DNA of 64,000 bases, taken from the NCBI GenBank assembly GCA_015493745.1, contig WGCN01000099.1:1541-65540 (forward strand). Direction: 5' to 3'. The DNA comes from Calditrichales bacterium (GTDB lineage Bacteria > Calditrichota > Calditrichia > Calditrichales > J004). The notes beneath the pieces are model-generated. The model was not told where the DNA came from. It did no database searches and saw nothing but the letters and a program-made list of their open reading frames with translations. Numbering within the stretch: the first letter of the stretch is position 1; every line of letters starts with the position of its first letter. Positions 17,532-45,489 of this stretch are shown here, piece by piece. Made by a program: the position numbers and the translations under genes.

Positions 17532-17538
17532 ACTCAAA

Positions 17539-18807: not shown

Positions 18808-18821
18808 AAAAGGAGAGACCG

Positions 18822-19649: not shown

Positions 19650-19664
19650 TAAAGGAGATCGCAA

Positions 19665-21355: not shown

Positions 21356-21379
21356 TGCAATCGGAAAGGGAGGGTAAAT

Positions 21380-29788: not shown

Positions 29789-31054
29789 ATGCGATCATTA
29801 ATCATGAAAGGGGCCGTCCTTTTTTTATGGGCCGGCATTTTGTTCAACGCGGGCGCGCAGCAAAAGCTGTATGATACCGCGCATATGCCCATCGTCGATA
29901 TGCATACCCATCTTAACGGACCCGATGAGTACAGGCAATGCGTGCGGACGATGGATGAATGGGGGGGAACCCTCAGCATCACCCTGAACAGAAACGACAC
30001 GGCGCTGGTCGCCTACGCGCGCGATTCGCTGCAGGGCCGCATCCTGATGGCCGGACGCGGCTTACGTTTTTCGCCGCGGGAAGTCGAACGTATGAAAGAG
30101 GTGGGGCTGGTCGGGCTAAAATCACACCTGCGCTACCATACCCTTGCTTCCCAACTACGGGAAGACCAGATTAAAAAAATGGGTGAACTCGGTTTTCCCT
30201 TTATCGCCCTGCATGTGGCCGATCCGCCGGAAGACCACTACTACAATGAAAACTTCATGAAGGCGCAACAGGACGCGGAACGGGTAATTCACAACAATCC
30301 GCAAACGAATTTTATCATGGCCCACGGTTTTTATCTTACCAACCGGGACGCGGATATAGATACCCTGCGCAAGTTTTTTGACCGCAATCCCAATTTGTAT
30401 GTGGATATCGTATGCAGCAAATGGTGGGATGCGCCCCGGCCCTCATATAACAAACTGCGCCGTCTGCTGATAGACTATAAAGACCGTTTTCTCTTTGGAA
30501 CGGATTTTAAGGTAACACGCCACGCGCCTGCTTTCCGCTTTTTACGCGAGAAACTGGAAACGGCCAAACCGCTGACCTTTGGCATGAACGGCGGCCCCGG
30601 CCCGGGACTGGCCCTGCCCCTGGATGTGTTGAATCATATCTATTACTGGAATGCGGCCAGAATCATTCCCGGGGTCAGGCAGGCTCTGGAAAAACTGGGT
30701 TACGAGATCAGCGACCGGCCTCCCGCGGCTCAGCCGGTAAAACCGGATCTGACCTACGACCCGGCGCCGGTGAGGGTACTGATCCATGAGGAAGCCGCTT
30801 CTCCGGATGCGGACGGATTTAAGGTGCAGATTGACCTGAGCGCCTATGATCGTTCCCTGCCGGGGCGGCTGGAAATTATGGACTATAAAAAGAAAAAAGT
30901 CAAAACCCTGTACAAGGGGATGCTCGGCGGTAAACGTTCCCTGGAATGGGATTTTACAAATGATGCCGGCGAAAAGATCAAGCCCGGGTTTTACCGCCTG
31001 TGGCTGATACTGGAAGAGAATAAATCGGTGGAAAGTAATTTTACGGTGGAATAA
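29789..31054 (+). CDS. secreted amidohydrolase-fold (metal-dependent hydrolase) protein with a T9SS/FlgD-Ig-like C-terminal domain
   Basis: IVDMHTHLNG metal motif. The C-terminal ~80 aa (RLEIMDYKKKKVKTLY..PGFYRLWLILEENKSVESNFTVE) resembles a T9SS sorting domain. I chose the start at 29789 because it gives a clean signal peptide (MRSLIMKGAVLFLWAGILFNAGAQQ); the longest ORF starts at 29747. Confidence 0.55.
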   Translation: MRSLIMKGAVLFLWAGILFNAGAQQKLYDTAHMPIVDMHTHLNGPDEYRQCVRTMDEWGGTLSITLNRNDTALVAYARDSLQGRILMAGRGLRFSPREVERMKEVGLVGLKSHLRYHTLASQLREDQIKKMGELGFPFIALHVADPPEDHYYNENFMKAQQDAERVIHNNPQTNFIMAHGFYLTNRDADIDTLRKFFDRNPNLYVDIVCSKWWDAPRPSYNKLRRLLIDYKDRFLFGTDFKVTRHAPAFRFLREKLETAKPLTFGMNGGPGPGLALPLDVLNHIYYWNAARIIPGVRQALEKLGYEISDRPPAAQPVKPDLTYDPAPVRVLIHEEAASPDADGFKVQIDLSAYDRSLPGRLEIMDYKKKKVKTLYKGMLGGKRSLEWDFTNDAGEKIKPGFYRLWLILEENKSVESNFTVE

Positions 31055-31093
31055 AAAGGCACCGGTTAATACAACGAATAAGGAGAGTGTTTG

Positions 31094-32332
31094 ATGTTCA
31101 GGTTTGCCGCTAAGCTGGCCTTGGTAATGCTAATGGGTTTTCAGACGTTAAACGCGCAATCGGTCTGGAATGAAAAAACGGCAGTTAAAGAGGCGCTTCG
31201 GTTTTTGCAGAAGGTGGAAGACGAGACCATCCGCGAACAGATAAAAATCACGGAGATTCCCGCACCGCCTTTTAAGGAAGGGCAACGGGCGGAGTATTTG
31301 ATGAAGCGTTTTCGCGATCTGGGCTTGCATGACGTGCGCCGCGATAGCGAAGGCAATGTGATAGCCGCCTACCCCGGTGGCGGAGACGGACCGCTTTTGG
31401 TACTCTCCGCCCATCTGGATTCGGTTTTTCCGGAAGGGACCGATGTGAAGGTGCGCCGCGAGGGAAATATTCTGAAGGGCCCGGGCATTAGTGATGACAG
31501 CCGGGGGCTGGCGGTGATGCTGGCCGTGGCCCGCGCTCTCACCCTTCATAAGATAACCATCGGCGGCCGGTTGCTTTTTGTGGGTACCGTGGGCGAGGAA
31601 GGGCCGGGCAATCTGCGCGGTGTGCGTCACCTTTTCGAAAAGGAGTTGGAAGAGGTGGATTACTTTATCTCCATAGACGACGTGGGCTTAAAAACCATTT
31701 CCACCGCCGTGGGCAGTAACCGCTACAAAGTAATTTTCCGCGGCAGCGGCGGGCACAGTTATGCCGATTTCGGCATCCGTAACCCCATGCACGCTCTGGG
31801 GCGGGCCATGGCCGGTATTGCCGATTTTCAGGTATCCTCCCGGCCCAAAACTACTTTCAGCATCGGCCGTGTTTCCGGCGGTACATCGGTGAATTCCATC
31901 GCGCATACCGTCTGGATGGAAGTGGATATGCGTTCCCAGGACGCGGAAGAACTGGACAAGCTGGACCGGATGTTTAAAAAAACGGTATACAAGGCCCTTG
32001 TCCGGGAAAACCGCCGCTGGAGCTCCGGCGATACCCTGACCGTTGAATTTGTAACCATCGGGAAGCGGCCCACCGGCACCCTGCCGGAAAAGGCGACCAT
32101 TTTGCAGGCGGTGAGCCGGGCGGATCAGGCCCTGGGCATTGAGTCGCAATATCAGCCCGGCAGCACCGACGCCAACGTACCCATCAGCATGGGGATTGAA
32201 GCGGTGACCCTGGGCGGCGGCGGAGACGGGCAATATAAACACTCCCTGCAGGAAACGTTTGATACAACGGATAGTTATATCGGTACCCAAAGAATCTTTT
32301 TAGCTGTTTTGGAACTCCTGGGTGTGCGGTAA
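31094..32332 (+). CDS. secreted M20-family peptidase (peptidase T-like)
   Basis: Signal peptide present. Metal blocks are VLSAHLDSV, GPGISDDSRG and GTVGEEG. The ATG at 31094 lies 7 nt after AAGGAGAG; the track ORF starts at a TTG at 31091. Confidence 0.7.
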   Translation: MFRFAAKLALVMLMGFQTLNAQSVWNEKTAVKEALRFLQKVEDETIREQIKITEIPAPPFKEGQRAEYLMKRFRDLGLHDVRRDSEGNVIAAYPGGGDGPLLVLSAHLDSVFPEGTDVKVRREGNILKGPGISDDSRGLAVMLAVARALTLHKITIGGRLLFVGTVGEEGPGNLRGVRHLFEKELEEVDYFISIDDVGLKTISTAVGSNRYKVIFRGSGGHSYADFGIRNPMHALGRAMAGIADFQVSSRPKTTFSIGRVSGGTSVNSIAHTVWMEVDMRSQDAEELDKLDRMFKKTVYKALVRENRRWSSGDTLTVEFVTIGKRPTGTLPEKATILQAVSRADQALGIESQYQPGSTDANVPISMGIEAVTLGGGGDGQYKHSLQETFDTTDSYIGTQRIFLAVLELLGVR

Positions 32333-32373
32333 GGATCGGGTACAGAGATAAAATAAATCTTCATTCCGGCGGA

Positions 32374-32412
32374 GAAAGCATTGTAAAAAGCCGGGAAGCA
32401 TTGTATTATAAT
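32374..32412 (+). promoter_or_regulatory. two 10-bp direct repeats (AAGCATTGTA, 20-bp period) abutting a TATAAT box; candidate LytTR autoregulatory promoter
   Basis: Repeats at 32376-32385 and 32396-32405, identical over 10 nt (11 of 12 when extended), followed by TATAAT at 32407-32412, 28 nt upstream of the LytTR regulator start. Confidence 0.4.
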
Positions 32413-32439
32413 AGGGAAGGCATGGAAGGGTAAAAGCGT

Positions 32440-33171
32440 ATGACGCCACTTAGAACAATAATTATTGATGATGTCAAGCTCATCCGTGAGGAGCTTAAGG
32501 CCCTGTTGCAAAGCTATCCGGAAATCGAGGTGATTGGTGAGGCCGGTACCGTGGATCAGGCCATAGAGCTGGTGACCACCTATAAACCCGATGTGGTTTT
32601 TTTGGATATACAACTCAAGGATGAAACGGGATTTACCCTGTTGGAAAAAATAAAGATGGATTTGAAAATCATCTTTATTACCGCCTATGATCAATACGCC
32701 ATCCGTGCTTTCGAGGTCAATGCCCTGGACTATCTGCTTAAACCGGTCGACAAGGGTCGGCTGGATAAGGCCATATCGCGTCTGGTTTCCGAGGAAAGTG
32801 ACGTTAATGTGGTTAAAAACGATAAGCTTGACTATAACGATGTCATTTATCTGTTAATTAACGGCTCTTTCAAATTTGTAAAGATAAAAGCCATACGCTG
32901 TCTGATAGCCGCCGGAAAATATTCCTATATTTATTATGGCGAAAGAAAAAGCAAAGATCTGGTTTCCAAGACCCTGCTGGAGTGGGAGAAGATACTGCCG
33001 GATCAGTATCTGGTGCGGATTCACAGATCGACCATCGTTAACTTTGAACATGTGGAGCGGGTGAAAAAGCAGAAAAATAATTGTCATGAAGTCTATGTAC
33101 GGGGTATTGAGCAGCCCTTTATCATCAGCCGGCGCTATGCTTCCCGGCTGAAAAAATTTCTGGTCCGCTGA
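32440..33171 (+). CDS. LytR/AlgR-family response regulator (receiver + LytTR DNA-binding domain)
   Basis: Receiver motifs IIIDDV and DVVFLDIQL. The C-terminal part (IRCLIAAGKYSYIYYG..LVRIHRSTIVNFEHV) is a LytTR domain. Confidence 0.85.
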   Translation: MTPLRTIIIDDVKLIREELKALLQSYPEIEVIGEAGTVDQAIELVTTYKPDVVFLDIQLKDETGFTLLEKIKMDLKIIFITAYDQYAIRAFEVNALDYLLKPVDKGRLDKAISRLVSEESDVNVVKNDKLDYNDVIYLLINGSFKFVKIKAIRCLIAAGKYSYIYYGERKSKDLVSKTLLEWEKILPDQYLVRIHRSTIVNFEHVERVKKQKNNCHEVYVRGIEQPFIISRRYASRLKKFLVR

Positions 33172-33506
33172 CAGGCGAAGGCAGTGAAGGCGGTTTTCCT
33201 GTTACCCGGTTTGAATTTTCCCGGCCGTTCCCCTATCTTAAACACAAGCTTTGACCGGTGGTGATGCTTTGGCGGCTCAGCACGGAAAAGCCTTTTTCAC
33301 CTTATCCAAATCCATCAATTCATAATGCACACAACCATTTCGCGGTGCCGCTGCCAACAGCTTCGGTGCTATTAACCGTTCGATACCATATAGTGCCGTT
33401 AAGTGCTAAGCTTTTGGTTTGATGGCAAAAAAGGATTTTATTTCGATAACTACTTTCATGACTCTCGTCTGTATTTTTTCATTTCTACTGTTTTTCGGGA
33501 TTATTG

Positions 33507-33875
33507 ATGAAGCAATTAAAAGCGCTGGTAATAGATGATGTTAAGTTGATTCGTGCTGAGTTGAAAATGATACTTGCAGACTTTAAGAACATTGAAGTTA
33601 TTGGAGAAGCCGGTGATGTCAATGAAGCCCTGAAGCTGATCAGTGAAAAAAAACCGGATATTGTTTTCCTGGATATTCATTTACCGGGTTCTTCGGGGTT
33701 TGATTTGCTGGACAGGGTAGAGGAAAGGCTCCATGTGGTTTTCATATCATCGTACTTTTACAAGTACTCGGCGAAAATCAAGGAATACAATCCCGTGGGA
33801 TTGTTGAGTAAACCCATAAGAAAAGAGATGCTTTCCAAGACACTGGAAAGTTTGATGAAACGAACGTTGGAATAA
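33507..33875 (+). CDS. stand-alone receiver (CheY-like) response regulator, paralogue of the upstream LytTR regulator's receiver domain
   Basis: ~122 aa with VIDDVKLIRAELK..IEVIGEAGDV..PDIVFLDIHLPGSSGF, strongly similar to residues 8-70 of the 32440 gene. It ends cleanly after receiver helix 5. ATG at 33507; the track ORF starts at a TTG at 33504. Confidence 0.8.
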   Translation: MKQLKALVIDDVKLIRAELKMILADFKNIEVIGEAGDVNEALKLISEKKPDIVFLDIHLPGSSGFDLLDRVEERLHVVFISSYFYKYSAKIKEYNPVGLLSKPIRKEMLSKTLESLMKRTLE

Positions 33876-34041
33876 ACAAACAGACCGGGTAGCCTAAGTT
33901 GAAAAGAGTATGGCTCCACTTAAATACTGGCGGGTAAAAAATCCCTCCTTTTATTTGTGGTTATGGAACGTTGGTGGAGAAGGACGGCAACTTAGGTGAG
34001 TCCCGGATTATACGATGTCAACAAAAAGGTAAAGCAAAAAG

Positions 34042-35523
34042 ATGTATTCATTCTCTGATCAGCCCCTCCGGAGAATCTTGGTCCGGAAAATGAGATTGTC
34101 GGCATTTTTTATGATCGCCATCCTTTTCTTTTCCTGCTCGGAAAAAGAGAACAGCGGCGTGCTGGCTGAAGTTGACGGTAAGGCCATCACCGTGGAAGAG
34201 TTTTTGAACCGGGCCGAGCTCACCCCCCGGCCTCATTATTGCCGTAAGGGATCGGAAAAAGACAAGAACATCGTCCTGAATACGCTGATAGTTGAAAAGC
34301 TGTTAGCCCTTGATGGCCGGGAAGAGAGCGTCCTGGCCGGACAAAAGTTGTTCCGGGCCTTCATTAAGGGCCGCAAGGAGCAATATATGCGGGAAGAGCT
34401 GTTTAACCGGCTGGCCGCCCGTGAAACGGATATAGACTCTCTGGAGCTGAAGGAAGCCTTCCACCGCGCGGGTTATATCTATGAGGTGAAATTCATTATT
34501 CAAAACAGCGCGCAGGCCGGCGCCCTGCTGGAAAAACTGCAAAAAAATCCCCTGCAAAAGCGAAGGATTCTGGCTGAAACCTATCATGATTTTAAGCCCG
34601 CCAACCATACGGTTTATTTTGAGGATCCCGAATATCCCGCCCTGCATCATGCCATATTTGATTCGGTCTGGCAGAAGGGCGATATCATCGGCCCGGTCAG
34701 AATGCGTGAAACCAAATACATGACTCTGGAGATCACCCGGGTTCTTTATGAACCGGCCATGTCGCAAAACGAAAAAGTTATCCGGAAAAAACGTGTCCGG
34801 GAAAGAATTCTGGAACGTAAAACCAATCAAAGATGGAATGCCTACACTGCCAAACTCATGAAAGGGGTATCGGTCTCCTTTAATCCCAAAATAACGATGG
34901 AGGTGGCCGCTCTTTGGTCGAAGAATTTCAAAACCTCAACCCTTGAAAAGGAAAACGATCAGAAAGAAAGAAACTACGGTCGTTTTGTGCGTGAGATTGA
35001 GAAAATAAAAGATCAGCCCATGTTTACCGTATCCGGCAAGGTATGGCACGTCGGGGATTTTACGGAAGCCTTGTCGTCCCATCCGCTTGTTTTTCGCAAG
35101 GCGGATATGGCGCCTTCGGAATTCATAGGGCAATTTAAACTGGCCGTTATCGATCTGATCCAGGACAGTTACATAACACGTGACGCTTATGCCCGGGGCA
35201 TTGACCGCCTAAGCAGCGTACAGAGAAATACCGCCATGTGGGAAGATGCTTATCTGGCGTTGGAAAACAGAAGCCGGGTACTTTCCATGCTTTCTCCGGG
35301 GAGCGGCAATGCCGATTTTCACAAGACGATGGATGTTTACATAGAGCGGCTCATCGATAAGTACAAAGACCGCATAAAAATCAACCGTGAATTGCTGGCA
35401 GGCATAAAGCTGACCGGAACGGATTTTATTTCCAGTCAGCAGTTTGTGCCCTATTCCCAAATCGTGCCCCATTTTCCGGTATTGACGAAAGAAGAAAAAT
35501 TGCTGTACGGGCGAAAGATGTAA
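34042..35523 (+). CDS. SurA-N-like putative periplasmic chaperone lipoprotein (no PPIase motif recognised)
   Basis: An internal Met at 34090 gives a lipoprotein signal (MRLSAFFMIAILFFS|C). AEVDGKAITVEEFLNRAE resembles the SurA/PpiD N-terminal chaperone domain. It is the first gene of the outer-membrane operon. Confidence 0.4.
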   Translation: MYSFSDQPLRRILVRKMRLSAFFMIAILFFSCSEKENSGVLAEVDGKAITVEEFLNRAELTPRPHYCRKGSEKDKNIVLNTLIVEKLLALDGREESVLAGQKLFRAFIKGRKEQYMREELFNRLAARETDIDSLELKEAFHRAGYIYEVKFIIQNSAQAGALLEKLQKNPLQKRRILAETYHDFKPANHTVYFEDPEYPALHHAIFDSVWQKGDIIGPVRMRETKYMTLEITRVLYEPAMSQNEKVIRKKRVRERILERKTNQRWNAYTAKLMKGVSVSFNPKITMEVAALWSKNFKTSTLEKENDQKERNYGRFVREIEKIKDQPMFTVSGKVWHVGDFTEALSSHPLVFRKADMAPSEFIGQFKLAVIDLIQDSYITRDAYARGIDRLSSVQRNTAMWEDAYLALENRSRVLSMLSPGSGNADFHKTMDVYIERLIDKYKDRIKINRELLAGIKLTGTDFISSQQFVPYSQIVPHFPVLTKEEKLLYGRKM

Positions 35524-35620
35524 ATGGGAATGGAAAACCTCTATCAGAAGGAATGTTGCAGATGCACAGGAACCATATAAAACGAACCTTGGAAAATAAA
35601 AAATATAAAACGGAGTTATC

Positions 35621-38600
35621 GTGATGATCGCAAAGCCACGCTATACCATTGTTTTGGTTTTGATATTTTCCTTTTTGTGTATTCAATCGGCCATGGCCGG
35701 CACAACGGGAAAACTGGCAGGAAGGGTGACAGACGCCGAGACCGGCGATCCGCTTCCCGGAGTGAATATTTTGCTGGAAGGCACAACAATGGGTGCCTCG
35801 GCCGATGTGAACGGTGAATATTATATTATAAACATCCCCCCCGGTACCTATGAGGTTCAGGCTGTTTATATAGGGTTTACCACCAGCATTGTCAGAAATG
35901 TGCAAATAAATATCGACCGTACCACCCAGGTGGATTTTGAGCTGTCGCAAACCGTTCTGGAGCAATCCGAGGCCATTGTGGTGGAAGCCCAAAGCGAAGT
36001 GATACAGAAAGATATGACCGGCTCCCTTTCCACGGTAAGCTCTGCAGATATCGACGACATGCCGGTGCAAACCATCAGCGAGGTCATCAATTTGCAGGCC
36101 GGGGTTATCGAGGGTGACGGCGGAATCCATGTCCGCGGGGGGCGCGCCGGGGAAACCCGTTTTATGGTGGATGGTGTTTCCATAACCAATCTGAACGGTA
36201 GCCAGGGTATCGATATTGAAACCGATGCCGTGCAGGAAATGCAGTTGATCAGCGGTACCTTTAACGCTGAATACGGCAAGGCCATGTCGGGAATTGTCAA
36301 CATCATCACCAAGGAAGGCGGGGATGAGTACTCGGCACAGGTGCAGGCCATTCTCGGTTCCTTTTACAGTCAAAGTGATATCTACAGCGTTATGAATAGC
36401 TATGGACCGGGTTTCAGTTCGGTCGTGGGTAAAACGGTTATGATCGATCAGTCGGATAAGCCCTTGTCGGAGATACGGCCCAACTATGATGTGCGGGGTA
36501 TCCTTTCCGGGCCGGTGCCCTTTTTGGGCAAGGATTTTAACTTTTTTGTCAGCGGCCGCTTTACCAGCAACAACGGCTATCTGTACGGCCGCCGGTGGTT
36601 CACACCGCAGGGGCTGCCCGGAGACAGCGCCCTGGTTCCGCTAAGGCCGCAAAATTCCAGCTCCATCCAGGGGAAAATCACCTGGCGCCCCTTTCCCGGT
36701 TTTAAATTGAGCTATTCGGCTTTTTACAATTACTCCAGGCGGGATCGCTTTACCAGCATCGTTAACCGCTATGTGCCCGACTCCGGCCCGATGAGCCTGA
36801 ATCAGGGCCTGTCACAGACTTTGTCCTTAAATCATGCTTTTTCTGCCAGTACATTTATGGATTTTAAATTGAGCCGCTATGATACGGAACGGGAAAGTTA
36901 CCTTTATAAAGACCCCACGGCCATGCCGGGCTACTTTATCCGTATTTATAAGGAGATAGACGGGGAAATCGTTCAGGAAGATGTCTATTATTCCTCCAAT
37001 AGCGAGAAGGATGCCATTGTGGCCAATGCCAAGGAAAACGGCTGGTCCTATGAGTTTATCATCGATCCCAAAAGATCCGAAGGGTATATCGATCCCGTTC
37101 TGAATTCAAATCCCCTGTCCTATTCTTTCCGCAGCCGCTATGTACCACCCGATTTCAGTTTCAGCAAGGATCAGTTCTGGCTGGCCAAGCTTGACCTGAC
37201 CAGCCAGGTGTCCAAACATCACATGGTTAAGGGTGGTTTCGAGGCTATTTATAATACCGTGGAGCGCAAGGGTTTTACCCTGCGGCCCAAGACCGACAGC
37301 GACGGCAACCAGATTGAACCCTATGAACCCTACGTGGAAGATGAAAGCAGTATCTGGACCAACTCCTTTACGCGCAATCCCATAGAGATATCGGCCTATA
37401 TTCAGGATAAGATGGAGTTTGATCAGCTTATCGTCAATCTCGGTCTGCGCATGGATTATTTTGATCCCGATTATATTACCCCTGTCGATCCGCAAGACCC
37501 CGATATCTATAACCCCGCCAATCCCGAGTGGATAGGCCCCAACTGGGATGAGGACTATTACTTTAACCTGAAGACGGCCGAGGAAAAACGGGCCTATGAG
37601 CAGGCCAACAGCTATACGCCGGAAGAACGTCGCAAGCTAATGCAAAAACGGGTTAAGCCCAAGGTACAGGTCAGTCCGCGTATCGGTCTGGCCTATCCCA
37701 TAAGTGAAAAAGGCGTTATTCATCTTTCCTACGGTCACTTCTTTCAAATGCCGGACGCTCGTTATCTCTATGGCAACGCCTCCAGCATCCGTCCCGATTA
37801 CAAACTCTCGGTCGGATCTCAGCAACAACTGTTTGGCAATGCCGATCTTAAGGCTGAGCGCACGGTACAGTATGAAATAGGGCTGCAATCCGAAGTTATG
37901 CCCGGTTTTGGTCTGGACATAACCCTGTTCTATAAGGATATCCGTGACTGGATCGGTATTTCACCGCCGGTGGATACCAAACACGGCCAGGTTACCCGCT
38001 ATGTACAGTATGAAAACAAGGACTATGCTAATATACGCGGTGTCACATTATCCTTCGAAGCCCGCCCAACGCGTAATTTTACCGCCATGGTGGATTACAC
38101 CTTTCAGGTAGCCGAGGGAACATACTCCTCCCCCAATGACGCCTATGCCGCCCTGCTCAGCAATCAGGAGCCGGCGCAAAAGCTGATTTATATGGACTAT
38201 GACCGCCGCCACAGCCTGAACGGTATTTTTACCTACCGCTGGGAAGGCTGGGTTGCTTCTCTGATCGGGAAATTTAACACCGGATTCCCCTACACCCCGG
38301 AAAAGGTGGCCGGTTCACCCCAGGCCAACTACCGTGGCTGGCGGGAAAATATCGCCCGCAGGCCCAATAACAGCCAGGTGGATTTACGGGTGGACAAAAC
38401 TCTGCTAACCCTGGCCGGTATGACCCATAAAATCTACTTAAGGGTATTTAATCTGTTTGATCAAAAGAGTGAACTGCAGGTCTTTTCCGATACCGGAACG
38501 GCGGCCTACACCAGTTACGGAACACACAGTTGGGTCAGCTATAACCCCAACCGTATCGGTTCTCTGGAACACTATTTGTTAAATCCCACGTGGTATCAGC

Positions 38601-38641
38601 CGCCACGGGAAATACAGCTCGGCTATATCATAAACTTTTAA
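35621..38641 (+). CDS. SusC-type TonB-dependent outer-membrane receptor (CarboxypepD_reg + plug + barrel)
   Basis: Signal peptide, then a carboxypeptidase-regulatory-like domain (GKLAGRVTDAETGDPLPGVNILLEG..YEVQAVYIGF), a plug (IHVRGGRAGETRFMVDGVSI), a ~800-aa barrel and a terminal ..LGYIINF. Confidence 0.85.
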   Translation: MMIAKPRYTIVLVLIFSFLCIQSAMAGTTGKLAGRVTDAETGDPLPGVNILLEGTTMGASADVNGEYYIINIPPGTYEVQAVYIGFTTSIVRNVQINIDRTTQVDFELSQTVLEQSEAIVVEAQSEVIQKDMTGSLSTVSSADIDDMPVQTISEVINLQAGVIEGDGGIHVRGGRAGETRFMVDGVSITNLNGSQGIDIETDAVQEMQLISGTFNAEYGKAMSGIVNIITKEGGDEYSAQVQAILGSFYSQSDIYSVMNSYGPGFSSVVGKTVMIDQSDKPLSEIRPNYDVRGILSGPVPFLGKDFNFFVSGRFTSNNGYLYGRRWFTPQGLPGDSALVPLRPQNSSSIQGKITWRPFPGFKLSYSAFYNYSRRDRFTSIVNRYVPDSGPMSLNQGLSQTLSLNHAFSASTFMDFKLSRYDTERESYLYKDPTAMPGYFIRIYKEIDGEIVQEDVYYSSNSEKDAIVANAKENGWSYEFIIDPKRSEGYIDPVLNSNPLSYSFRSRYVPPDFSFSKDQFWLAKLDLTSQVSKHHMVKGGFEAIYNTVERKGFTLRPKTDSDGNQIEPYEPYVEDESSIWTNSFTRNPIEISAYIQDKMEFDQLIVNLGLRMDYFDPDYITPVDPQDPDIYNPANPEWIGPNWDEDYYFNLKTAEEKRAYEQANSYTPEERRKLMQKRVKPKVQVSPRIGLAYPISEKGVIHLSYGHFFQMPDARYLYGNASSIRPDYKLSVGSQQQLFGNADLKAERTVQYEIGLQSEVMPGFGLDITLFYKDIRDWIGISPPVDTKHGQVTRYVQYENKDYANIRGVTLSFEARPTRNFTAMVDYTFQVAEGTYSSPNDAYAALLSNQEPAQKLIYMDYDRRHSLNGIFTYRWEGWVASLIGKFNTGFPYTPEKVAGSPQANYRGWRENIARRPNNSQVDLRVDKTLLTLAGMTHKIYLRVFNLFDQKSELQVFSDTGTAAYTSYGTHSWVSYNPNRIGSLEHYLLNPTWYQPPREIQLGYIINF

Positions 38642-38656
38642 TAAATGGATTAAAAA

Positions 38657-41600
38657 ATGAAAAGAATACATCTCATCCTTTTTATACTGTTGGCCGGAGT
38701 ATTGTTGGTTCAGTCCCAGGAGTCCATCGACAAACTGAACGGCGATATGTTTTATAACCGGCGCGGTTTGCATAACGGCAATCAAATCCGCACCTCTTTT
38801 GGAAACGACGGACAGATAGGTTTCCGCGGCGCCCGCGGTTCCACCCGGGAAATCCCCGGAGAGTGGCCGGTAAATTCCGGACATGTCTATTTAACCAAAA
38901 TCGTACTTTTGCCCATGGCCGAAGTCCGCGATAAAAACGGAAACATCGAGCACATCGTGTCGGAGTCCCACGGCACAAATACCACCTGGGAGTTCCTGAC
39001 GTCCATTGGTGACCTGGATGTGGATGGCCGCTGGCGGACAATCACGCCCCTGCCCGGTTTTATCAACCCGGCCCTGATGACCCTGCCCGCGGATTCGGCC
39101 TCTCCGGCCCTGAGCGACCTGAGGAACACCTGGCCCATGTTCTGGCCAGATAAAATGAAAGACCCCTTTGATCCGGGCTGGCCGGGACAGTGGAACGGTT
39201 ACTTTGGAAAAGGGCAGATCAAGGCCGATCAGGAAAGTTATTGGGTGGCCGACGATTATCAGAACGATGAATTCGATTATTTTCCCGATGAAAACAATCT
39301 CAGCCGCCGGGGCATGGGCATTCGCATCTTTTACCGTGGCTTGCAGTGGTCGAATCCCATGGTGGAGGATGTTATGTTCATCATTTACGATATCGAAAAC
39401 GTGGGCACCAAAAGCCTGGATAAAATGAACTTTGCCATGCTTCCCGATATTGACGCCGGACCGGTTATCGGCGAATGGGATTTTAACCCCGATAAAAACT
39501 CTTTCGAAAAAGAGGAAGACTGGTTTTATATATATGACGAAAACTGGGTAAACGCCGGGGTGGGCGCCTATTTTACACCTATCGCCTATTGCGCCTATGC
39601 CCTGTATGAAACGCCCGGTAACGAGTTTGACGGCATCGATAACGACCAGGATGGCGATTTGGGTAAAACCGCCGGTTCCACGGGTGAAGGGATCAATATC
39701 ACCGAGTCCCTTTTTCAAAGGGGGCCGCTCGGGCTGACCGACACCATTGTGATTGTGGACTATAAAACCTATAAAAGAACTCTTAACACCCTGGAGGGTT
39801 TGAAACTTTCCAGCCCGGAGCTTTTTTCCGGCGATACCCTGGTCATCGACTTTATCGGCCGTCCGCAAAAATTCTGGCCCGGAAAGGAGCTGGATGAAAT
39901 TCCCTTTAACAATATCGATGACAACTTAAACGGTCTGATTGATGAAAATAACGGTACCGAAGTGGAAAACGGCCTGTTTAGCTACATTTATGAAGGCAAC
40001 CTGGCCATAGACTATTTTAGCGGAGCCGGAAAAAACAATCCCATGATCGACGAGAGCCGCAAGGACGGCATCGATAATGACAAGGATTGGACTTTTCTCG
40101 ATGACTCCGGGGTGGATGGTAAAAAGGAGACCGGCGACTATGGCGAGGGGGATGACCTGCCCACCAGTAAGTATCAATGGCTGGGCGACAGCCTGATCGT
40201 CCATGACGGCCCGGGTGAGCCGAATATCGATGCCACCGATATTACCGAAAGCGACATGATCGGTATGACCTCCTATTTCAGTACGCAGGACTGGCAAGCC
40301 TATCTGTTGTGGGAAGATGAAAAATTATGGAATGTTACCATCCCCGGTAAAATAGAAGGTATTGCCCATACCGTGGAGGTCTCTTTTATGGGCTCGGGCT
40401 ATTTCCCGCTCCCCTCCGGACAGATCGAGCGTTTCTCCGGCGCCATAATGTATAACAACAAGCTGGACGGATTAAGACGCACCAAGGCCAATGCCCAGCG
40501 AGCCTATGACGGTAACTATCAGTTTTACCGCGCGCCGGAGCGGCCCACGCTGCGCGCCGTGCCCGGTGACGGCAAGGTGACCCTCTATTGGGATGATCTG
40601 GCCGAGAAATCGGTGGATCCGCTGTTGGGTGAGGACTTCGAGGGATACCGCATCTATCGCAGTACCGGTATCGATTTTAAGGATATGCCTCAAATCACCA
40701 ATGCCTTTGGCGATGAAAAGTTGATGGAGCCCCTGGCTCAGTTTGATCTGATTAACGGCATTAAAGGTCTTTCACCCGGTGTGATCGAAGGGGTTCAGTT
40801 CTATCTGGGCGATGATACCGGCCTGCGACATGAATGGGTGGATACCACCGTGGTCAACGGTCAACGCTATTTCTACTATATATCCTCCTATGATCATGGT
40901 GATCCGGCCTCACTGGTGGCTCCGACGGAGAGCAATAAAACCATCCTGCTGGATCCGACCACCGGCGATGTGATTAAAAAGAGTTCCAATGTGGTGGTGG
41001 TTACCCCCAACGCCTCATCGGCCGGTTATCAAAGAGCCCCGGACGATGTGGGTATCGAACTGGCCGAGGGGGTTTCCGACGCGGTGCTCTATCTGGAGGT
41101 TTTTGATTCTCCGGCCATAAAGGATGACAACCGTTACCGGGTTACTTTTGAGGATTCCGTGATCGCCGTACCGGGTTATCAGAAAAAACAACTGGTCACC
41201 ACATCCGTTACCCTTGAAAATTTAACGACCGGTAAGGTTTTGCTGGACCGCACCACAAAAGGTCTGTTTGGCACGGAATTTCCGGTAACCGAAGGCTTTA
41301 AGCTGCATTTGAACAATCCTCCGGTGGTGAAAGTGGACACCACTTCCGGCTTTGAGCGCCAGGGGGTATACAAGCCGTCCTTCGCCACCTTTTACAAAGG
41401 AACAAAGGGCACCATTACCGCCGATGATTACCTGATCGAATTCGGCGAAGTGGGTATCGATACCTCCACGCAGTTCAAACCGGCCAGCAAAAACCTGCCC
41501 GCCAAGCCGGTCAACTTTACCATAACCAATCTGGTAACCGGGCGGAAGATAGACTTTGCCTTTAACGAGCGCGATCCGTTTCCCTCCGTTCCCGCGGATG

Positions 41601-42175
41601 AGGCCGGTAAGTTTACCTTTAAATCGGGCCGGTTTGCCTTTTCCGATGAGATCTATTTTCTGGAGGAGGATGAAAACGGTGATTTGCAAACCACCTGGCT
41701 GGTAAAAATGGGTGAGAGCACCAATCCGGCGGATACCACCAATCCCGGTCCGGGGGATGTGCTGACCCTGAAAACCATAAAGCCGGCCCTGGCCCGCGAT
41801 GCCTTTGAGTTTACCACCATCGGCGAGTCGATAGACCAGAAAAAGGCTGCCGCCGAGATGGATCGCATTAAGGTTGTGCCCAATCCCTATGTGGTAAGCA
41901 ACAGTTGGGAAAGGAACAATCCTTTTAGTACGGGCCGCGGACCGAGGGAATTGCATTTTACCCATCTGCCGGCCAGGTGCACGATCCGTATTTTTGATGT
42001 CGCCGGACAATTGGTGGATGTCATTGAAAGGGATGTCAGCAATGTGGTGGATGGCGTACAGGTTTGGGATATGCGCACCAAGGATGGTTTGGAAATCGGG
42101 TTTGGTATTTATATCTATTACATAGACGCCCCGGGTGTGGGTACTATTGCCGGTAAGTTTGCCGTTATTAAATAA
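38657..42175 (+). CDS. 1172-aa secreted protein of unknown function with DxDxDG-type Ca-binding loops and a T9SS C-terminal sorting domain
   Basis: Signal peptide (LAGVLLVQSQE). Acidic loops are DGIDNDQDGD (39629-39658), NNIDDNLNGLIDENNG (39908-39955) and DGIDNDKDW (40064-40090). The C-terminal domain (41867-42172) reads KVVPNPYVV..CTIRIFDVAGQLV..GIYIYYID..GKFAVIK. Confidence 0.6.
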   Translation: MKRIHLILFILLAGVLLVQSQESIDKLNGDMFYNRRGLHNGNQIRTSFGNDGQIGFRGARGSTREIPGEWPVNSGHVYLTKIVLLPMAEVRDKNGNIEHIVSESHGTNTTWEFLTSIGDLDVDGRWRTITPLPGFINPALMTLPADSASPALSDLRNTWPMFWPDKMKDPFDPGWPGQWNGYFGKGQIKADQESYWVADDYQNDEFDYFPDENNLSRRGMGIRIFYRGLQWSNPMVEDVMFIIYDIENVGTKSLDKMNFAMLPDIDAGPVIGEWDFNPDKNSFEKEEDWFYIYDENWVNAGVGAYFTPIAYCAYALYETPGNEFDGIDNDQDGDLGKTAGSTGEGINITESLFQRGPLGLTDTIVIVDYKTYKRTLNTLEGLKLSSPELFSGDTLVIDFIGRPQKFWPGKELDEIPFNNIDDNLNGLIDENNGTEVENGLFSYIYEGNLAIDYFSGAGKNNPMIDESRKDGIDNDKDWTFLDDSGVDGKKETGDYGEGDDLPTSKYQWLGDSLIVHDGPGEPNIDATDITESDMIGMTSYFSTQDWQAYLLWEDEKLWNVTIPGKIEGIAHTVEVSFMGSGYFPLPSGQIERFSGAIMYNNKLDGLRRTKANAQRAYDGNYQFYRAPERPTLRAVPGDGKVTLYWDDLAEKSVDPLLGEDFEGYRIYRSTGIDFKDMPQITNAFGDEKLMEPLAQFDLINGIKGLSPGVIEGVQFYLGDDTGLRHEWVDTTVVNGQRYFYYISSYDHGDPASLVAPTESNKTILLDPTTGDVIKKSSNVVVVTPNASSAGYQRAPDDVGIELAEGVSDAVLYLEVFDSPAIKDDNRYRVTFEDSVIAVPGYQKKQLVTTSVTLENLTTGKVLLDRTTKGLFGTEFPVTEGFKLHLNNPPVVKVDTTSGFERQGVYKPSFATFYKGTKGTITADDYLIEFGEVGIDTSTQFKPASKNLPAKPVNFTITNLVTGRKIDFAFNERDPFPSVPADEAGKFTFKSGRFAFSDEIYFLEEDENGDLQTTWLVKMGESTNPADTTNPGPGDVLTLKTIKPALARDAFEFTTIGESIDQKKAAAEMDRIKVVPNPYVVSNSWERNNPFSTGRGPRELHFTHLPARCTIRIFDVAGQLVDVIERDVSNVVDGVQVWDMRTKDGLEIGFGIYIYYIDAPGVGTIAGKFAVIK

Positions 42176-42207
42176 ACCCATGGGGAAAAGATTTGGAAGG
42201 AAATGTA

Positions 42208-43236
42208 ATGTTGCGATATAAGAAGATTTATTTAATGGTTCTGTTAATGTGCGGCCTGAGCATGGGGCAGGTAACCAAGGTGGGTACCACCGTGGCCAAC
42301 TTTCTTTTGATAGAATCGGGCGCCAGGGCGGTGGCTATGGGTGGGGCCTATGTGGCCGTTGCCGAAGGGCCGGTGGCCATGTATTGGAATCCCTCGGGTA
42401 TTGCGCAGATTAATAAGTTTTCCACCTCCTTTAGCCGCAGCGACTGGCTTCTGGATTTAAGCTATAACTTTGTGGGAGCGGTTATGCCGGTGGGCACCAA
42501 CGGCACCCTGGGGATAAATGCCCTTTTCCTGAGCATGGATGACATGCAAATTACCACGGAGTATTTTCCCGAAGGAGTGGAGAACGGCTATTTTAGCGCC
42601 GGCAACTATGCCGTGGGGGTTAGTTATGGCTTCAGGTTGACCGACAGGTTTTCCATGGGCTTTACGGGAAAGCTTATCTATGAATATATCTCGCAAAGCT
42701 CGGCCACGGCCGTGGCCATGGATATCGGTACCCTGTATGTTACCGAGTTTGATGATCTGCGCATAGGCATGAGCATCTCCAACTATGGCACCAAAATGCA
42801 ACTGAGCGGCGGTGATTTGCTGATTCAGCACGATCGCTATGATCAGGAAGGCAACAATCCCAATATCAACGCCAATCTGGCGACGGACTCCTTTGATCTG
42901 CCGTTGATTTTTCGCTTTGGCCTCAGTTGGGATGCCTTGAAGGGCAAGCATGACAGCAATCTGCTTTTGGCGGTGGATGCTCTGGTACCCAACAATAATT
43001 ACCAGAGTCTGAACGCCGGCATGGAGTATGTGCTGAAGAAAATGTTCAGCCTGCGCGCCGGTTACAATACCTGGTATGGCTTTGGGCAAAAAGATGAAAA
43101 CGATCAAAGCGGCCTCTCCCTCGGTGTCGGTTTAAAGTACTCCTTTGACGCCACGGCGGTGAGCATCGATTATGCCTACCGGGACTATGGCGTTTTAAAT
43201 GACATCCAGATGTTTGCCATCCAATTATCCTTTTAA
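42208..43236 (+). CDS. PorV/PorQ (LptO)-family outer-membrane beta-barrel
   Basis: Signal peptide, then VGTTVANFLLIESGARAVAMGGAYVAVAEGPVAMYWNPSGIA, which is the characteristic PorV-family N-terminal block. The pattern is beta-rich and ends ..FAIQLSF. ATG at 42208 lies 6 nt after GGAAGGA. Confidence 0.65.
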   Translation: MLRYKKIYLMVLLMCGLSMGQVTKVGTTVANFLLIESGARAVAMGGAYVAVAEGPVAMYWNPSGIAQINKFSTSFSRSDWLLDLSYNFVGAVMPVGTNGTLGINALFLSMDDMQITTEYFPEGVENGYFSAGNYAVGVSYGFRLTDRFSMGFTGKLIYEYISQSSATAVAMDIGTLYVTEFDDLRIGMSISNYGTKMQLSGGDLLIQHDRYDQEGNNPNINANLATDSFDLPLIFRFGLSWDALKGKHDSNLLLAVDALVPNNNYQSLNAGMEYVLKKMFSLRAGYNTWYGFGQKDENDQSGLSLGVGLKYSFDATAVSIDYAYRDYGVLNDIQMFAIQLSF

Positions 43237-43240
43237 AGAA

Positions 43241-43275
43241 GGATGCGGGATTAAATATCCCGCATCCCATATTTT
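43241..43275 (+). terminator. rho-independent terminator closing the outer-membrane operon
   Basis: A perfect 11-bp stem GGATGCGGGAT-TAAAT-ATCCCGCATCC followed by CATATTTT, 5 nt after the stop codon. Confidence 0.8.
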
Positions 43276-43347
43276 GACTAAACATGCCCGGTTAAGGCCC
43301 GGAAACGTCCGGTTACCTGATTGGGCTTTCATTTAAATTAAAAGACT

Positions 43348-45489
43348 ATGATGCGAATATTGTTTGTCACCCTGACGGTGATGATTATGATTATGTTGGC
43401 CTCTTGTGGCCGGGACAAGGGAAAGAGTGCCTTTTCCGAATCCGCCTCCGAATTGACTTTCGAAAATGATGCCTTGCGCCTGTCGGTTGACGATGGCATG
43501 AATATCCGTCTTTTGCGGAAAAATAACGGTAAGACTTTCAATCTGGTGAGTCCGGGCCGCGATCCTTTTACGTTGGTGATTAACGGACAGGAACTGAAAG
43601 ATTTTACGCTGGATCGTAGGCAAACGCAAATCCTGCCTCTTGACAGTCTGTGGGGTAAGGGGCAGCGGCTGATTGTCCGCGGAAGGACCGCCGGGCCCTC
43701 CGGTTCCGAAATCGGGAAAACACTCTTCATCGACCTTTACGATGATTTTCCTTCGGCGGTTCTCCTTTCCGCACGGTATAGAAATATAAGCCATACGGAC
43801 AGCCTTTTTGTGAACAAGGAGATCAATAACCGTTTTCGCCTGGATGCCCGGTTGGAGAATCCCGCCCATAAAAGTTATGATTTCTGGATTTTGCAGGGCG
43901 GTTCCTATAAAACGCGGCCCGACTGGATTATGCCGGTTACGGCCGATTTTGATTATTTAAATTATCAGGGACCGGATTATGAAAACGATGAGGCTGGCGG
44001 CGGTCTGCCGGTTTTGGATGTCTGGTCGAGGGAAACGGGTTTTTTGATTGGCAGTGTCGAGGAAAAACCCACCCTGATCTCATTGCCGGCGCGGGTGGCG
44101 GGGGACAGCCTGTTACATATCGCCATTGAATACGAGCGCGAGGATCATAAATTCACCGCCGGCTATCAATCCATCACCACCGTTATTGCTGTGCATGAAG
44201 GTGATTTCTATAACGGTCTGAAAAATTACAGGGATATTATGGCCGGCCGGGGACTTAAAATGATAAGTCTCTCCGCGGATAATCCCGTCTATGACGCCAT
44301 CTGGTGTGGTTGGGGGTTTGGGCCGGACTTTACCACTTCCCAGATGATTGAAATGATTCCCCTGTTAAAGGAGTGGGGCATAAAGGTGGTGACGGTTGAT
44401 TTCGGCTGGTTTACGGCCAATGGCGATTTTGACCGGCTTAATCCGGAAATTTTCCCCAACGGCGAATCCGATATCCGGGCCTTTGTAAAAACATTTCATG
44501 ATGCCGGGTTCCGCATAAAGCTCTGGATAACCCCGGCCATAGCCGGACCGGATTTGATGGCCCGTCATCCGCAATGGCTGATGAAAGACCGCCATGGCCT
44601 TTTGTATCAAAAGGAAAAGTTTGGCAAGCCGTATGCTTTTTTATGCCCCGCCGTGGATGAGGTGCGCGCCTATTACGGGCAATTGACCCGGAAAATAATC
44701 GGCGACTGGGGCTTTGACGGTTTTAAGGCCGATCAGGAAATCATCAACGCCATCCCCAATTGTTACAACCCGGCTCACAACCACCCTACCCCCCAGGCCT
44801 CGTTTGAAGAGCTTCCGGGGCTTTATAAGATTATGGCCGATGAAACCTTTAAAATAAAACCGGACGCCATCCTCGAGGTATGTCCCTGCGGCATGTTCCC
44901 CTCATTTTATAAAATGCCCTATTACAACCAGCCCTTGTCATCGGATTTTAACACGCAATGGCAAATTCGTCACCGCGGCAAAGTCATAAAATCCCTGATG
45001 GGCGCCAATGCCGCTTATTATGGCGACCATGTGGAACGCCACTACACACCGGACTATTTTGCTTCTGTCATCGGCAGCGGGGGTATTCCCGGGACCATGG
45101 CCGTGTTACGCGAAGAGGATAACTATCCCGTGTTGAGGGCCAAATACCCCGGCTATATTTCACCGGAAAGAAAAGTGCTGTTTAAAAAATGGCTGGACTT
45201 GTATAAACGCTATCCTTTAAGCAAGGGGCACTATCAAAATCTGTATGATCTGGGTTATGACATCCCCGAGACCCATGCCATCGAGAAAGACGGGGTGATG
45301 TACTATGCCTTTTACGCCGATAAATGGTCGGGAACAGTTGAGTTACGCGGTCTGAAAGACGGTACGTATGATATCGTTGATTATGTTAACGATGTGACTC
45401 TGGCCCGCATACAAGGCCCGGGAAAGATAACGGTAGAATTTGAACGCTATCTTCTGGTAAAAGCCGTACCGGCCGGTTCCGGGAATTAA
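43348..45489 (+). CDS. GH36-like (clan GH-D, alpha-galactosidase-type) glycoside hydrolase lipoprotein
   Basis: Lipobox (MLAS|C). At 713 aa the size is right for GH36. The blocks VTVDFGWF, KLWITP, GFDGFKADQE and EVCPCGMF correspond to the DDGWF, WxEPE, KWD and CxGGG blocks of GH36/27 enzymes. Confidence 0.45.
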   Translation: MMRILFVTLTVMIMIMLASCGRDKGKSAFSESASELTFENDALRLSVDDGMNIRLLRKNNGKTFNLVSPGRDPFTLVINGQELKDFTLDRRQTQILPLDSLWGKGQRLIVRGRTAGPSGSEIGKTLFIDLYDDFPSAVLLSARYRNISHTDSLFVNKEINNRFRLDARLENPAHKSYDFWILQGGSYKTRPDWIMPVTADFDYLNYQGPDYENDEAGGGLPVLDVWSRETGFLIGSVEEKPTLISLPARVAGDSLLHIAIEYEREDHKFTAGYQSITTVIAVHEGDFYNGLKNYRDIMAGRGLKMISLSADNPVYDAIWCGWGFGPDFTTSQMIEMIPLLKEWGIKVVTVDFGWFTANGDFDRLNPEIFPNGESDIRAFVKTFHDAGFRIKLWITPAIAGPDLMARHPQWLMKDRHGLLYQKEKFGKPYAFLCPAVDEVRAYYGQLTRKIIGDWGFDGFKADQEIINAIPNCYNPAHNHPTPQASFEELPGLYKIMADETFKIKPDAILEVCPCGMFPSFYKMPYYNQPLSSDFNTQWQIRHRGKVIKSLMGANAAYYGDHVERHYTPDYFASVIGSGGIPGTMAVLREEDNYPVLRAKYPGYISPERKVLFKKWLDLYKRYPLSKGHYQNLYDLGYDIPETHAIEKDGVMYYAFYADKWSGTVELRGLKDGTYDIVDYVNDVTLARIQGPGKITVEFERYLLVKAVPAGSGN

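Follow-up and report, generated by a model that had tools for sequence, protein, structure and literature searches.

How do bacteria of the Fibrobacteres–Chlorobi–Bacteroidetes (FCB) group that lie outside the Bacteroidia capture glycans at their surface? In metagenomes, the standard marker from which glycan use is predicted is the SusC/SusD pair; to our knowledge, such pairs are scarce or absent in KSB1, Calditrichota, Marinimicrobia, and Ignavibacteria, lineages that occur abundantly in sediments, hot springs, the dark ocean, and bioreactors. The question is raised by a locus in a 64,000-nucleotide stretch of the genome of a Calditrichales bacterium (GenBank assembly GCA_015493745.1, contig WGCN01000099.1, positions 1,541 to 65,540; hereafter, the window). 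An earlier reading of this DNA, here called the original prediction, described four consecutive genes as an outer-membrane operon built around a TonB-dependent transporter and lacking SusD. In the analysis reported here, three of these genes, designated T, B, and V, were found to belong to a very widespread and, it appears, undescribed outer-membrane module of the lineages named above, which takes the place of SusC/SusD in loci for sugar utilization. The fourth gene is designated S, and the four are arranged as follows.

34042-35523, + strand: S, 493 aa; SurA/PpiD-like lipoprotein, accessory chaperone candidate
35621-38641, + strand: T, 1006 aa, GTG start; TonB-dependent transporter
38657-42175, + strand: B, 1172 aa; secreted protein of an uncharacterized family
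42208-43236, + strand: V, 342 aa; PorV/PorQ-family outer-membrane beta-barrel

As originally predicted, the genes are co-directional and closely spaced, with gaps of 97, 15, and 32 nt by open reading frame (ORF) coordinates. For V, the start at ATG 42208 is that of the gene caller of a public assembly; the mechanical ORF list begins at TTG 42193. An identical B protein is recorded on an ENA metagenome scaffold with the same surrounding gene calls, and a second triad was not found within the 64-kb window. A pattern scan with one genome per GTDB species yielded at least 581 confirmed B loci; the best 80 of these belong to KSB1, Calditrichota/Caldithrix, Neomarinimicrobiota, Ignavibacteria (Melioribacter, Rosettibacter, Ignavibacterium), Kryptonium, and Stahlbacteria. 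Adjacency was counted in species-representative genomes of several FCB phyla, for the 52 B genes flanked by sufficient sequence. V adjoins B in all 52 loci (47 downstream, 5 upstream), and T lies directly 5' of B, or of V followed by B, in 51. Conservation of the unit beyond close relatives therefore holds for the T-B-V core, which is syntenic in KSB1/Zhuqueibacterota, Calditrichota, Neomarinimicrobiota, Ignavibacteria, Kryptonia, and Stahlbacteria. The order is T-V-B in 6 of 84 loci (L020, L022, L023, L030, L034, and L036), and S follows B directly in five of these six, all but the short contig L023. On account of these synteny counts, and with S relatives present in only 43 of the 84 loci, T-B-V is taken as the core unit and S as an accessory. 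Tandem triads also occur. One of them, on a contig shared with L031 (L001:1-13396), has the order T-B-V-T-B, with MEDS and a PAS histidine kinase after the second T-B pair; since that pair comes without its own V, a single V may be shared by two B proteins.

The expected absence of SusD was borne out by the same counts: the usual partner downstream of this transporter clade is B, or V then B (51 of 52 loci). SusD families were likewise absent among the 25 commonest Pfam families in a random sample of 87 nearest neighbors of triads. Neighbors with tetratricopeptide repeats (TPRs) were considered as SusD-like candidates and rejected, the TPR matches being those of proteins that combine a GDSL esterase with TPRs.

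The reading that we favor, and to which we give somewhat more credence than doubt, is that T-B-V is a module for glycan import, with B held at the cell surface by V through a retained C-terminal tail. It draws on gene content, synteny, family memberships, tail homology, cassette architecture, and genomic context. S-T-B-V would thus be the outer-membrane core of a glycan-utilization locus in an FCB bacterium resembling KSB1, with T as its TonB-energized importer. B would cross the inner membrane via Sec and the outer membrane via a type IX secretion system (T9SS) by means of its C-terminal domain, which would remain uncleaved and dock on V, as in the pairs PorZ-PorQ and PorU-PorV. Docking would tether B at the surface, beside or over T. 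The constant scaffold of B would contact V and T, and its variable cassettes would bind the locus-specific oligosaccharide and pass it to T; through this capture and hand-over, B and V together would fill the role that SusD plays for SusC. S would serve as an optional periplasmic chaperone for the assembly of large outer-membrane proteins. Neighboring T9SS-secreted carbohydrate-active enzymes (CAZymes) and binding proteins with carbohydrate-binding modules (CBMs) of families 20 and 48 would act ahead of import, whereas periplasmic hydrolases and SSF or ABC transporters would act after it. The B-V and B-T contacts, the ligand binding, and the import itself are all predicted steps.

In T, a signal peptide and a CarboxypepD_reg N-terminal extension are joined to a plug and a large barrel. 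All three domains pass their Pfam cut-offs: CarboxypepD_reg with E 5e-18, Plug with 38.1 bits (E 2e-9; cut-off 23.9), and TonB_dep_Rec_b-barrel with 97.1 bits (E 3e-27; cut-off 27). T is a member of the TonB-dependent transporter superfamily, with a plug and a 22-strand barrel that exceed curated thresholds. Judged by eye, a TonB-box-like stretch, SEAIVVEAQ, lies between the N-terminal extension and the plug; the family consensus is EEVxVVAER. The domain architecture given in the original prediction was therefore confirmed in all three of its parts, whereas its assignment to the SusC type was not. Against the SusC/RagA model TIGR04056, T scored 60.7 bits, far below the cut-off of 368, and aligned only with model positions 2-214 of 981; the best of 46 T homologs from other triads reached only E 7e-31. 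In the PDB, the T family profile best matched the plugs of Cir and FepA. It aligned with the SusC homolog 8aa4 only over positions 9-234, i.e., the N-terminal extension and plug, with the barrel left unaligned. A SusC-type barrel was rejected on these grounds, as agreement with both TIGR04056 and 8aa4 is confined to the N-terminal extension and plug, and no curated transporter subfamily claimed T.

A match to the Oar-type model PF25183 (OMP_b-brl_4; 39.8 bits) brings a different direction of transport into consideration. T could work outward in the manner of Myxococcus Oar, on which secretion of the protease PopC depends, or the triad could build an adhesin or coat unrelated to nutrient import. 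Oar-dependent secretion is documented (PMC6434023), T carries CarboxypepD_reg together with the partial OMP_b-brl_4 match, and B is rich in Ig/FN3-like domains, as adhesins are. However, the match covers only positions 366-473, about 110 of the 838 positions of the model. B, moreover, already has a T9SS-type tail and a dedicated PorV/PorQ-like partner, and the flanking genes encode sugar regulators, CAZymes, CBM proteins, and sugar transporters. We therefore regard an outward-working or adhesin-building triad as very improbable.

The import reading places the substrate-facing function in B, which is a far less familiar protein. B had been described as recognizable only by its acidic loops and sorting domain, and it indeed matched nothing in Pfam or NCBIfam at E<=0.01 and had no relative in the PDB, whether the query was its sequence alone or a 55-sequence profile. 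Its own family is large: a word-indexed search returned more than 1,656 matches, and an exhaustive search returned 3,825 clusters (50% identity) at E<=1e-3 and 515 at E<=1e-30. The nearest named relatives are from candidate division KSB1, Zhuqueibacterota, and Calditrichaeota. The recognizable features of B are a Sec signal peptide, a beta-rich conserved scaffold, acidic Ca-type loops, an FN3-like domain, and a T9SS-like C-terminal domain. The AlphaFold2 model (pLDDT 80, pTM 0.71) is almost entirely beta; when compared with the PDB by Foldseek, the whole model retrieved only FN3/Ig arrays and PorZ, the latter in third rank, at TM<0.1, and no enzyme fold. Residues 22-625 modeled alone from a 12-sequence alignment reached only pLDDT 44.5, and this model was not used further.

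Alternatively, B could be an extracellular enzyme whose fold is unrecognized and whose substrate is polysaccharide or protein; after T9SS secretion it would be released or remain attached to the surface, T would import its products, and V would serve as a secretion or shuttle partner. In the N-terminal scaffold of approximately 600 residues, Asp, Glu, and His are invariant at many positions and no known fold is matched, and many T9SS cargoes in triad loci are enzymes. Nevertheless, similarity to a characterized enzyme family, which had been set beforehand as grounds for giving up the original prediction, was not found: Pfam, NCBIfam, a PDB profile search, and Foldseek all returned no catalytic family. 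The invariant acidic residues lie instead in DxDxDG-type Ca-loop motifs, where the invariant Asp, Asn, and Gly residues of B are situated. It would also be unusual for one enzyme family to be tied one-to-one to a transporter across glycans as different as starch-type, xylan-type, and sulfated or uronic substrates, and the tail of B is more conserved than a removable signal requires. An enzymatic B thus appears distinctly unlikely.

Column conservation and the alignment of distant homologs divide B into a constant scaffold and two variable cassettes, located as follows.

39656-40042, + strand: B variable cassette 1, residues 334-462; absent or enlarged in distant homologs
41159-41731, + strand: B variable cassette 2, residues 835-1025; candidate ligand-binding region

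The least conserved stretches of B are residues 301-470 and 791-1058. Conservation is 0.28 for residues 301-470 and reaches its minimum, 0.25, in the region of cassette 2, compared with 0.41-0.56 in the scaffold. Distant homologs keep residues 35-333, 463-834, and 1025-1172 aligned, whereas 334-462 and 835-1025 are deleted or expanded. In three B variants of approximately 1,590 residues (P0183, P0172, and P0241), cassette 2 has grown to about 640 aa. In P0183 (L088:3022-7800) and P0241 (L089:4102-8859), both encoded within T-B-V triads, the expanded cassette is a Reg_prop beta-propeller that matches periplasmic sensor domains of Bacteroides hybrid two-component systems (4a2l, E 6.6e-29; 3v9f, E 8e-23 and 2.5e-16). 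The structure 4a2l/4a2m is the heparin-sensing domain of BT4663. Judged by these matches, P0183 and P0241 reuse a sensor-type module as part of a surface protein. Several indirect lines of evidence favor ligand binding by B at the surface.

The opposite end of the argument concerns the anchoring of B, which would depend on its C-terminal domain.

41858-42172, + strand: B C-terminal domain, residues 1068-1172; divergent T9SS type A-like sorting domain

No region of B is more conserved than this tail (column conservation 0.56), which corresponds to a seven-strand beta domain at residues 1072-1170 of the AlphaFold2 model. Its pairwise identity is 57%, compared with 39% for the cargo tails of the same loci and 41% for whole B. 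Aligned by hhalign with ten neighboring cargo tails annotated by Pfam as Por_Secre_tail, the tail gave a probability of 95.3% (E 2e-8) over 76 columns; for two other regions of B, used as controls, the probability was 0.2-0.3%. As judged by profile alignment, the C-terminus of B is homologous to the T9SS type A tails of neighboring cargo. For the isolated tail, PF18962 was not reported and CHU_C reached only E 0.18; its best NCBIfam matches were the C-termini of PorU (E 5e-4) and PorZ (E 9e-4).

The putative partner of the tail, V, matched the PorV/PorQ family model NF033709 over its full length (positions 1-326 of 326) with 209 bits against a cut-off of 90, and all 46 V homologs examined matched it in the same pattern. 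At the equivalog level, V remained below every cut-off: 116 of 220 bits for PorQ (NF033711), 76.3 of 250 for PorV (NF033710), and 73.4 of 325 for PorV2 (NF052325). The BamG model was weakly matched by 10 of the 46 proteins. In the PDB, the V family profile matched PorV of F. johnsoniae (6h3i_F, E 4e-25). By these profile scores, V is a distinct subfamily of PorV/PorQ and nearest to PorQ. The prediction of a PorV/LptO-type barrel was thus upheld as to family and needs to be amended as to subfamily, given that V is nearer PorQ and fails the equivalogs of both PorV and PorQ. In the T9SS itself, the tail of PorU is retained on PorV and that of PorZ on PorQ, and tail retention has been hypothesized for cognate PorV-like barrels in general (PMC10202324). 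We propose by analogy that the C-terminal domain of B is retained and bound by V, and that V is a dedicated anchor for B.

The same observations are open to another interpretation, in which B-V is a locus-specific T9SS attachment module. V-held B would receive or tether the cargo of the locus near T, without binding substrate or capping T, and would thereby organize a surface 'utilisome'. The resemblance of the isolated tail to the C-termini of PorU and PorZ, the third rank of PorZ in the Foldseek search, and the greater proximity of V to PorQ than to PorV are as expected of such a module. The strong conservation of the B scaffold would suit a machinery part, and T9SS cargo is encoded immediately 3' of the triad in 36 of 60 loci. 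Outside the tail, however, neither PorU nor PorZ is detectably similar to B, which also lacks a C25-type peptidase signature, and variable cassettes that include glycan-sensor-type propellers fit ligand recognition. In addition, the triad of the window and others (e.g., L086) have no adjacent cargo, and the linkage to T in 51 of 52 loci is not needed for an attachment role. We consider such a module unlikely, albeit the most serious competitor of the import reading.

The mature N-termini of B, V, and T are conserved and were read directly. Lipobox pattern matches in all three were discarded, as the cysteines lay within the hydrophobic cores of the signal peptides. The predicted signal-peptidase I cut leaves an N-terminal Gln in B (VQS|QES; 38657-38725) and in V (SMG|QVT; 42208-42275), as it does in many B and V homologs. 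This Gln is reminiscent of the 'Q-rule' of Bacteroidetes, which, according to the paper describing it, does not hold across the whole FCB group (PMC5837995).

The accessory gene S is less securely classified when taken alone. The window protein matched only SurA_N_2 (E 0.0065), with 16.8 bits against a cut-off of 28.5, and had no relative in the PDB. As annotated, the start (34042-34092) places 16 extra residues ahead of a lipoprotein signal peptide; the true start is probably Met17 (ATG 34090), which gives the signal peptide MRLSAFFMIAILFFSC with the lipobox FFSC. By jackhmmer, the S relatives lie mostly directly 5' of T or 3' of V/B. Among 42 family members, 36 have parvulin Rotamase domains, 24 SurA_N_3, and 19 SurA_N_2. 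Membership of S in the SurA_N and parvulin chaperone family is thus supported by homology. In contrast, no Rotamase match and no peptidyl-prolyl isomerase (PPIase) domain were detected in the window copy, for which PPIase activity, to judge from its sequence, is doubtful. The suggestion of a SurA-like chaperone accordingly survives for the family, but neither as a PPIase domain in this copy nor as a constant component of the loci.

The genomic surroundings of triads bear on what would be imported. In the neighbor survey, Por_Secre_tail was found on 24 of the 87 proteins. Recurrent neighbors were CBM20, alpha-amylase, and GH94 proteins, GDSL esterases, LacI regulators, and SSF symporters, as well as LuxR response regulators, ABC sugar permeases, and the protein with GDSL and TPR regions. 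Proteins of families GH10, GH67, GH43, GH97, and CBM9 with T9SS tails occur in individual loci. Cargo-type tails are encoded by 36 of 60 genes directly 3' of the triad. The family of these downstream genes, represented by 40 members, is mostly non-catalytic by Pfam: 36 have Por_Secre_tail, 23 CBM20, and 13 CBM48. In some of these non-catalytic proteins, repeated CBM20, CBM48, X25, or CBM53 modules precede the T9SS tail (L052:12189-13691, L077:13372-14865, and L019:14627-16672), and one CBM-repeat protein weakly matches SusF_SusE. The CBM-repeat, T9SS-tailed proteins look like functional counterparts of SusE/F. The GDSL and TPR protein, of approximately 650 aa, occurs near triads in 23 loci (e.g., L083:18535-20451, - strand), where its gene is the second or third 3' of the triad and mostly on the opposite strand.

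In the window, the triad is followed by a hydrolase gene and preceded by two response regulators, which had been noted in the original prediction and are both present. A hairpin lies between V and the hydrolase gene.

43241-43267, + strand: hairpin GGATGCGGGAT-TAAAT-ATCCCGCATCC, perfect 11-bp stem with 7 G-C pairs
43348-45489, + strand: lipoprotein glycoside hydrolase-like protein (DUF6259/melibiase/GH31-type TIM barrel); DUF6259 8e-12, Melibiase 2e-10, GH31 8e-8
32440-33171, + strand: LytTR-type response regulator; Pfam Response_reg 2e-22, LytTR 6e-18; nearest NCBIfam BtsR/LytR
33504-33875, + strand: stand-alone receiver (REC-only) protein, 123 aa, TTG start; Pfam Response_reg 8e-17

The hairpin, too, had been described previously, as an 11-bp-stem terminator, and it ranks first among the terminator-like sites in the 14 kb scanned (31000-45000). 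A modest T-run (CATATTTTGA) accompanies it, and this region shows no general enrichment of terminator-like sites (22 found vs 17.5 expected). The hairpin is a probable intrinsic terminator closing the S-T-B-V unit. The LytTR regulator is the probable transcriptional regulator of the locus. The REC-only protein is similar to the receiver domain of this neighboring regulator, and a REC-only gene for 123 aa also lies 5' of a 72%-identical homologous locus (L086:1687-2058), where it adjoins a LytS-type propeller sensor with Y_Y_Y and His_kinase domains. No sensor of that type was seen among the window genes scanned. The product of 43348-45489 begins with MLASCGRDKG, and this hydrolase probably acts in the periplasm on imported sugars.

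The triad of the window stands among genes for a sulfatase and a radical-SAM maturase, two M20 deacylases, a GNAT protein, an amidohydrolase, a BNR/sortilin protein, a GH28 protein, two SSF symporters, a NagB-like isomerase, and a hexuronate pathway (UxaC and UxuA). The presence of the sulfatase and maturase together with the M20, GNAT, and amidohydrolase genes suggests a sulfated or N-acylated glycan as the target of the locus; the substrate of the window locus would, on the whole context, be a glycan of sulfated or acylated aminosugar and uronic acid. At 27021-29745 (+), the gene for the radical-SAM/SPASM protein, of the anaerobic sulfatase-maturase type, overlaps the start of the sulfatase gene. 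The two M20 deacylase, GNAT, and amidohydrolase genes flank this pair just 5' of the regulators. The hexuronate catabolism cluster (15094-22408, +) comprises genes for a LacI regulator, UxaC, a 462-aa ORF (17419-18807), a short-chain dehydrogenase, UxuA, and a putative 2-keto-3-deoxy-6-phosphogluconate aldolase and 2-keto-3-deoxygluconate kinase; a minus-strand ORF within it (17623-18402) was rejected as spurious. At 2274-6383 (+) lies the gene for a 1369-aa subtilase (Peptidase_S8, 6e-59) with FG-GAP repeats. Its C-terminus (residues 1300-1369) matches the cargo-tail hidden Markov model with E 7e-7, making it the only other T9SS-type cargo in the window, and this tail suggests that the host uses a T9SS. 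The whole window (1-64000) contains no Rfam family at gathering score and no tRNA gene by tRNA scan. In the broad sense, the locus of the window and other triad loci are polysaccharide utilization locus (PUL)-like, TonB-dependent carbohydrate utilization loci; they are not PULs in the strict Bacteroidota sense, having no SusD and a T outside the SusC subfamily.

Several points weigh against the import reading set out above. The physical T-B-V complex, T9SS export, tail retention, a lid role of B on T, and the direction of transport through T are points that we infer, and the presence of a T9SS in triad genomes was deduced solely from cargo tails encoded nearby. The isolated tail of B scored 14.1 bits (E 0.035) with TIGR04183, below the cut-off of 23; accordingly, the T9SS sorting domain of the original prediction stands as homology to cargo tails and not as a match to this model. 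The triad of the window has no T9SS-tagged CAZyme or CBM protein adjacent to it. The approximately 600 residues of the conserved N-terminal B scaffold have no structural or sequence analog, on account of which B may have a catalytic function. Furthermore, B paralogs are 40-45% identical, much closer than SusD paralogs usually are, which is at least as compatible with a structural role as with a substrate-specific one. Finally, the distance correlations among T, B, and V in a mirror-tree analysis (r 0.79-0.87) are confounded by species phylogeny and were therefore given no weight.

How, then, does the module compare with known systems? Like SusC/SusD(/SusE/F), it combines a TonB-dependent transporter of approximately 1000 aa, bearing a CarboxypepD_reg extension, with a surface-partner gene immediately next to it, often followed by a non-catalytic CBM-bearing binding protein; it is set among CAZymes, a dedicated regulator, and inner-membrane sugar transporters, and it occurs in several paralogous copies per genome. 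Unlike SusC, T lies outside the SusC/RagA subfamily, and whereas SusD is a TPR-fold lipoprotein, B, at 1,100-1,600 aa, is all-beta and carries a T9SS-like tail. The triad also has a third obligatory gene, that of the PorV/PorQ-like barrel, and its accessory binding proteins carry T9SS tails in place of lipid anchors. The Melioribacter roseus genome paper describes one true SusCDE operon, and a triad is present in a metagenome-assembled genome (MAG) assigned to this species (L075); thus, the two systems probably coexist there.

The anchoring proposed for B has its closest parallels in PorZ-PorQ and PorU-PorV, in which a T9SS substrate is retained by its C-terminal domain on a cognate 14-strand barrel of the PorV family (PMC10202324); for B, such retention is only proposed. 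V is of the same barrel family, and the tail of B is nearest to those of PorU and PorZ. In contrast to these pairs, B is unrelated to PorU and PorZ beyond the tail, V passes neither equivalog cut-off, and B-V is multi-copy, locus-specific, and coupled to a TonB-dependent transporter rather than to T9SS core genes. As with SprB-SprF and other proteins with type B tails, a dedicated outer-membrane barrel is encoded beside its own T9SS substrate (PMC10202324). V, however, belongs to PorV/PorQ and not to PorP/SprF, the tail of B aligns with type A tails, and the triad is linked to nutrient loci rather than gliding adhesins. Another parallel is offered by BamA-BamG-BamH of the Bacteroidota barrel-assembly machinery (BAM), in which BamG, a FadL/PorV-like 14-strand barrel, packs against another barrel and holds a surface protein with its extracellular loops (PMC12578637). 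BAM differs in that its function is barrel assembly, BamH is a lipoprotein, and there is no T9SS tail.

Systems of the BtuB-BtuG, TbpA-TbpB, and HmuR-HmuY type pair a TonB-dependent transporter with a co-encoded, lipid-anchored surface protein that captures the ligand. B differs from these partners in having a Sec type I signal and a T9SS-like tail, with a barrel as its presumed anchor.

The original prediction held that no characterized system has this composition, and we agree insofar as no published description of the T-B-V triad was found in the full-text literature; most subscription journals lay outside the search, and an earlier account may exist. The genome papers on Melioribacter, Caldithrix, and Zhuqueibacterota and the T9SS literature searched do not describe the triad, and a 2026 review of bacterial glycoside transporters mentions neither PorV nor the T9SS, Ignavibacteria, Calditrichota, or Marinimicrobia. 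We class the locus as a known kind, a TonB-dependent glycan-uptake locus with a surface partner, made of different components: the transporter is not of the SusC type, the partner bears a T9SS tail, and the anchor is PorQ/V-like. A broader proposal, which we advance tentatively and with slightly more doubt than confidence, is that T-B-V represents a hitherto unrecognized class of outer-membrane machinery for glycan import and that, in FCB phyla outside the Bacteroidia (KSB1/Zhuqueibacterota, Calditrichota, Marinimicrobia, Ignavibacteria, and Kryptonia), it is the principal equivalent of SusCD. Its T9SS-delivered capture subunit would sit permanently on a PorQ/V-like barrel by way of an uncleaved tail and would carry exchangeable ligand-binding cassettes, among them modules like those of Bacteroides hybrid two-component sensors. 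As cultured carriers exist (Rosettibacter primus, and Melioribacter roseus by way of the triad in the MAG assigned to it), the hypothesis can be tested now.

If it is correct, a triad among CAZymes would offer a marker of glycan use in the non-Bacteroidia FCB phyla equivalent to SusC/SusD, altering estimates of which organisms take up polysaccharide directly. B is at present annotated merely as hypothetical, and its cassette architecture would provide a route to substrate prediction. For the PorV family, the principle that a cognate barrel holds a retained tail would extend from the T9SS machinery to nutrient acquisition, a new non-secretory use. A TonB-dependent transporter would then be able to recruit a surface partner that is anchored by a barrel rather than by a lipid, and the T-B-V module would represent a second, independent solution to the capture of nutrients at the bacterial surface.

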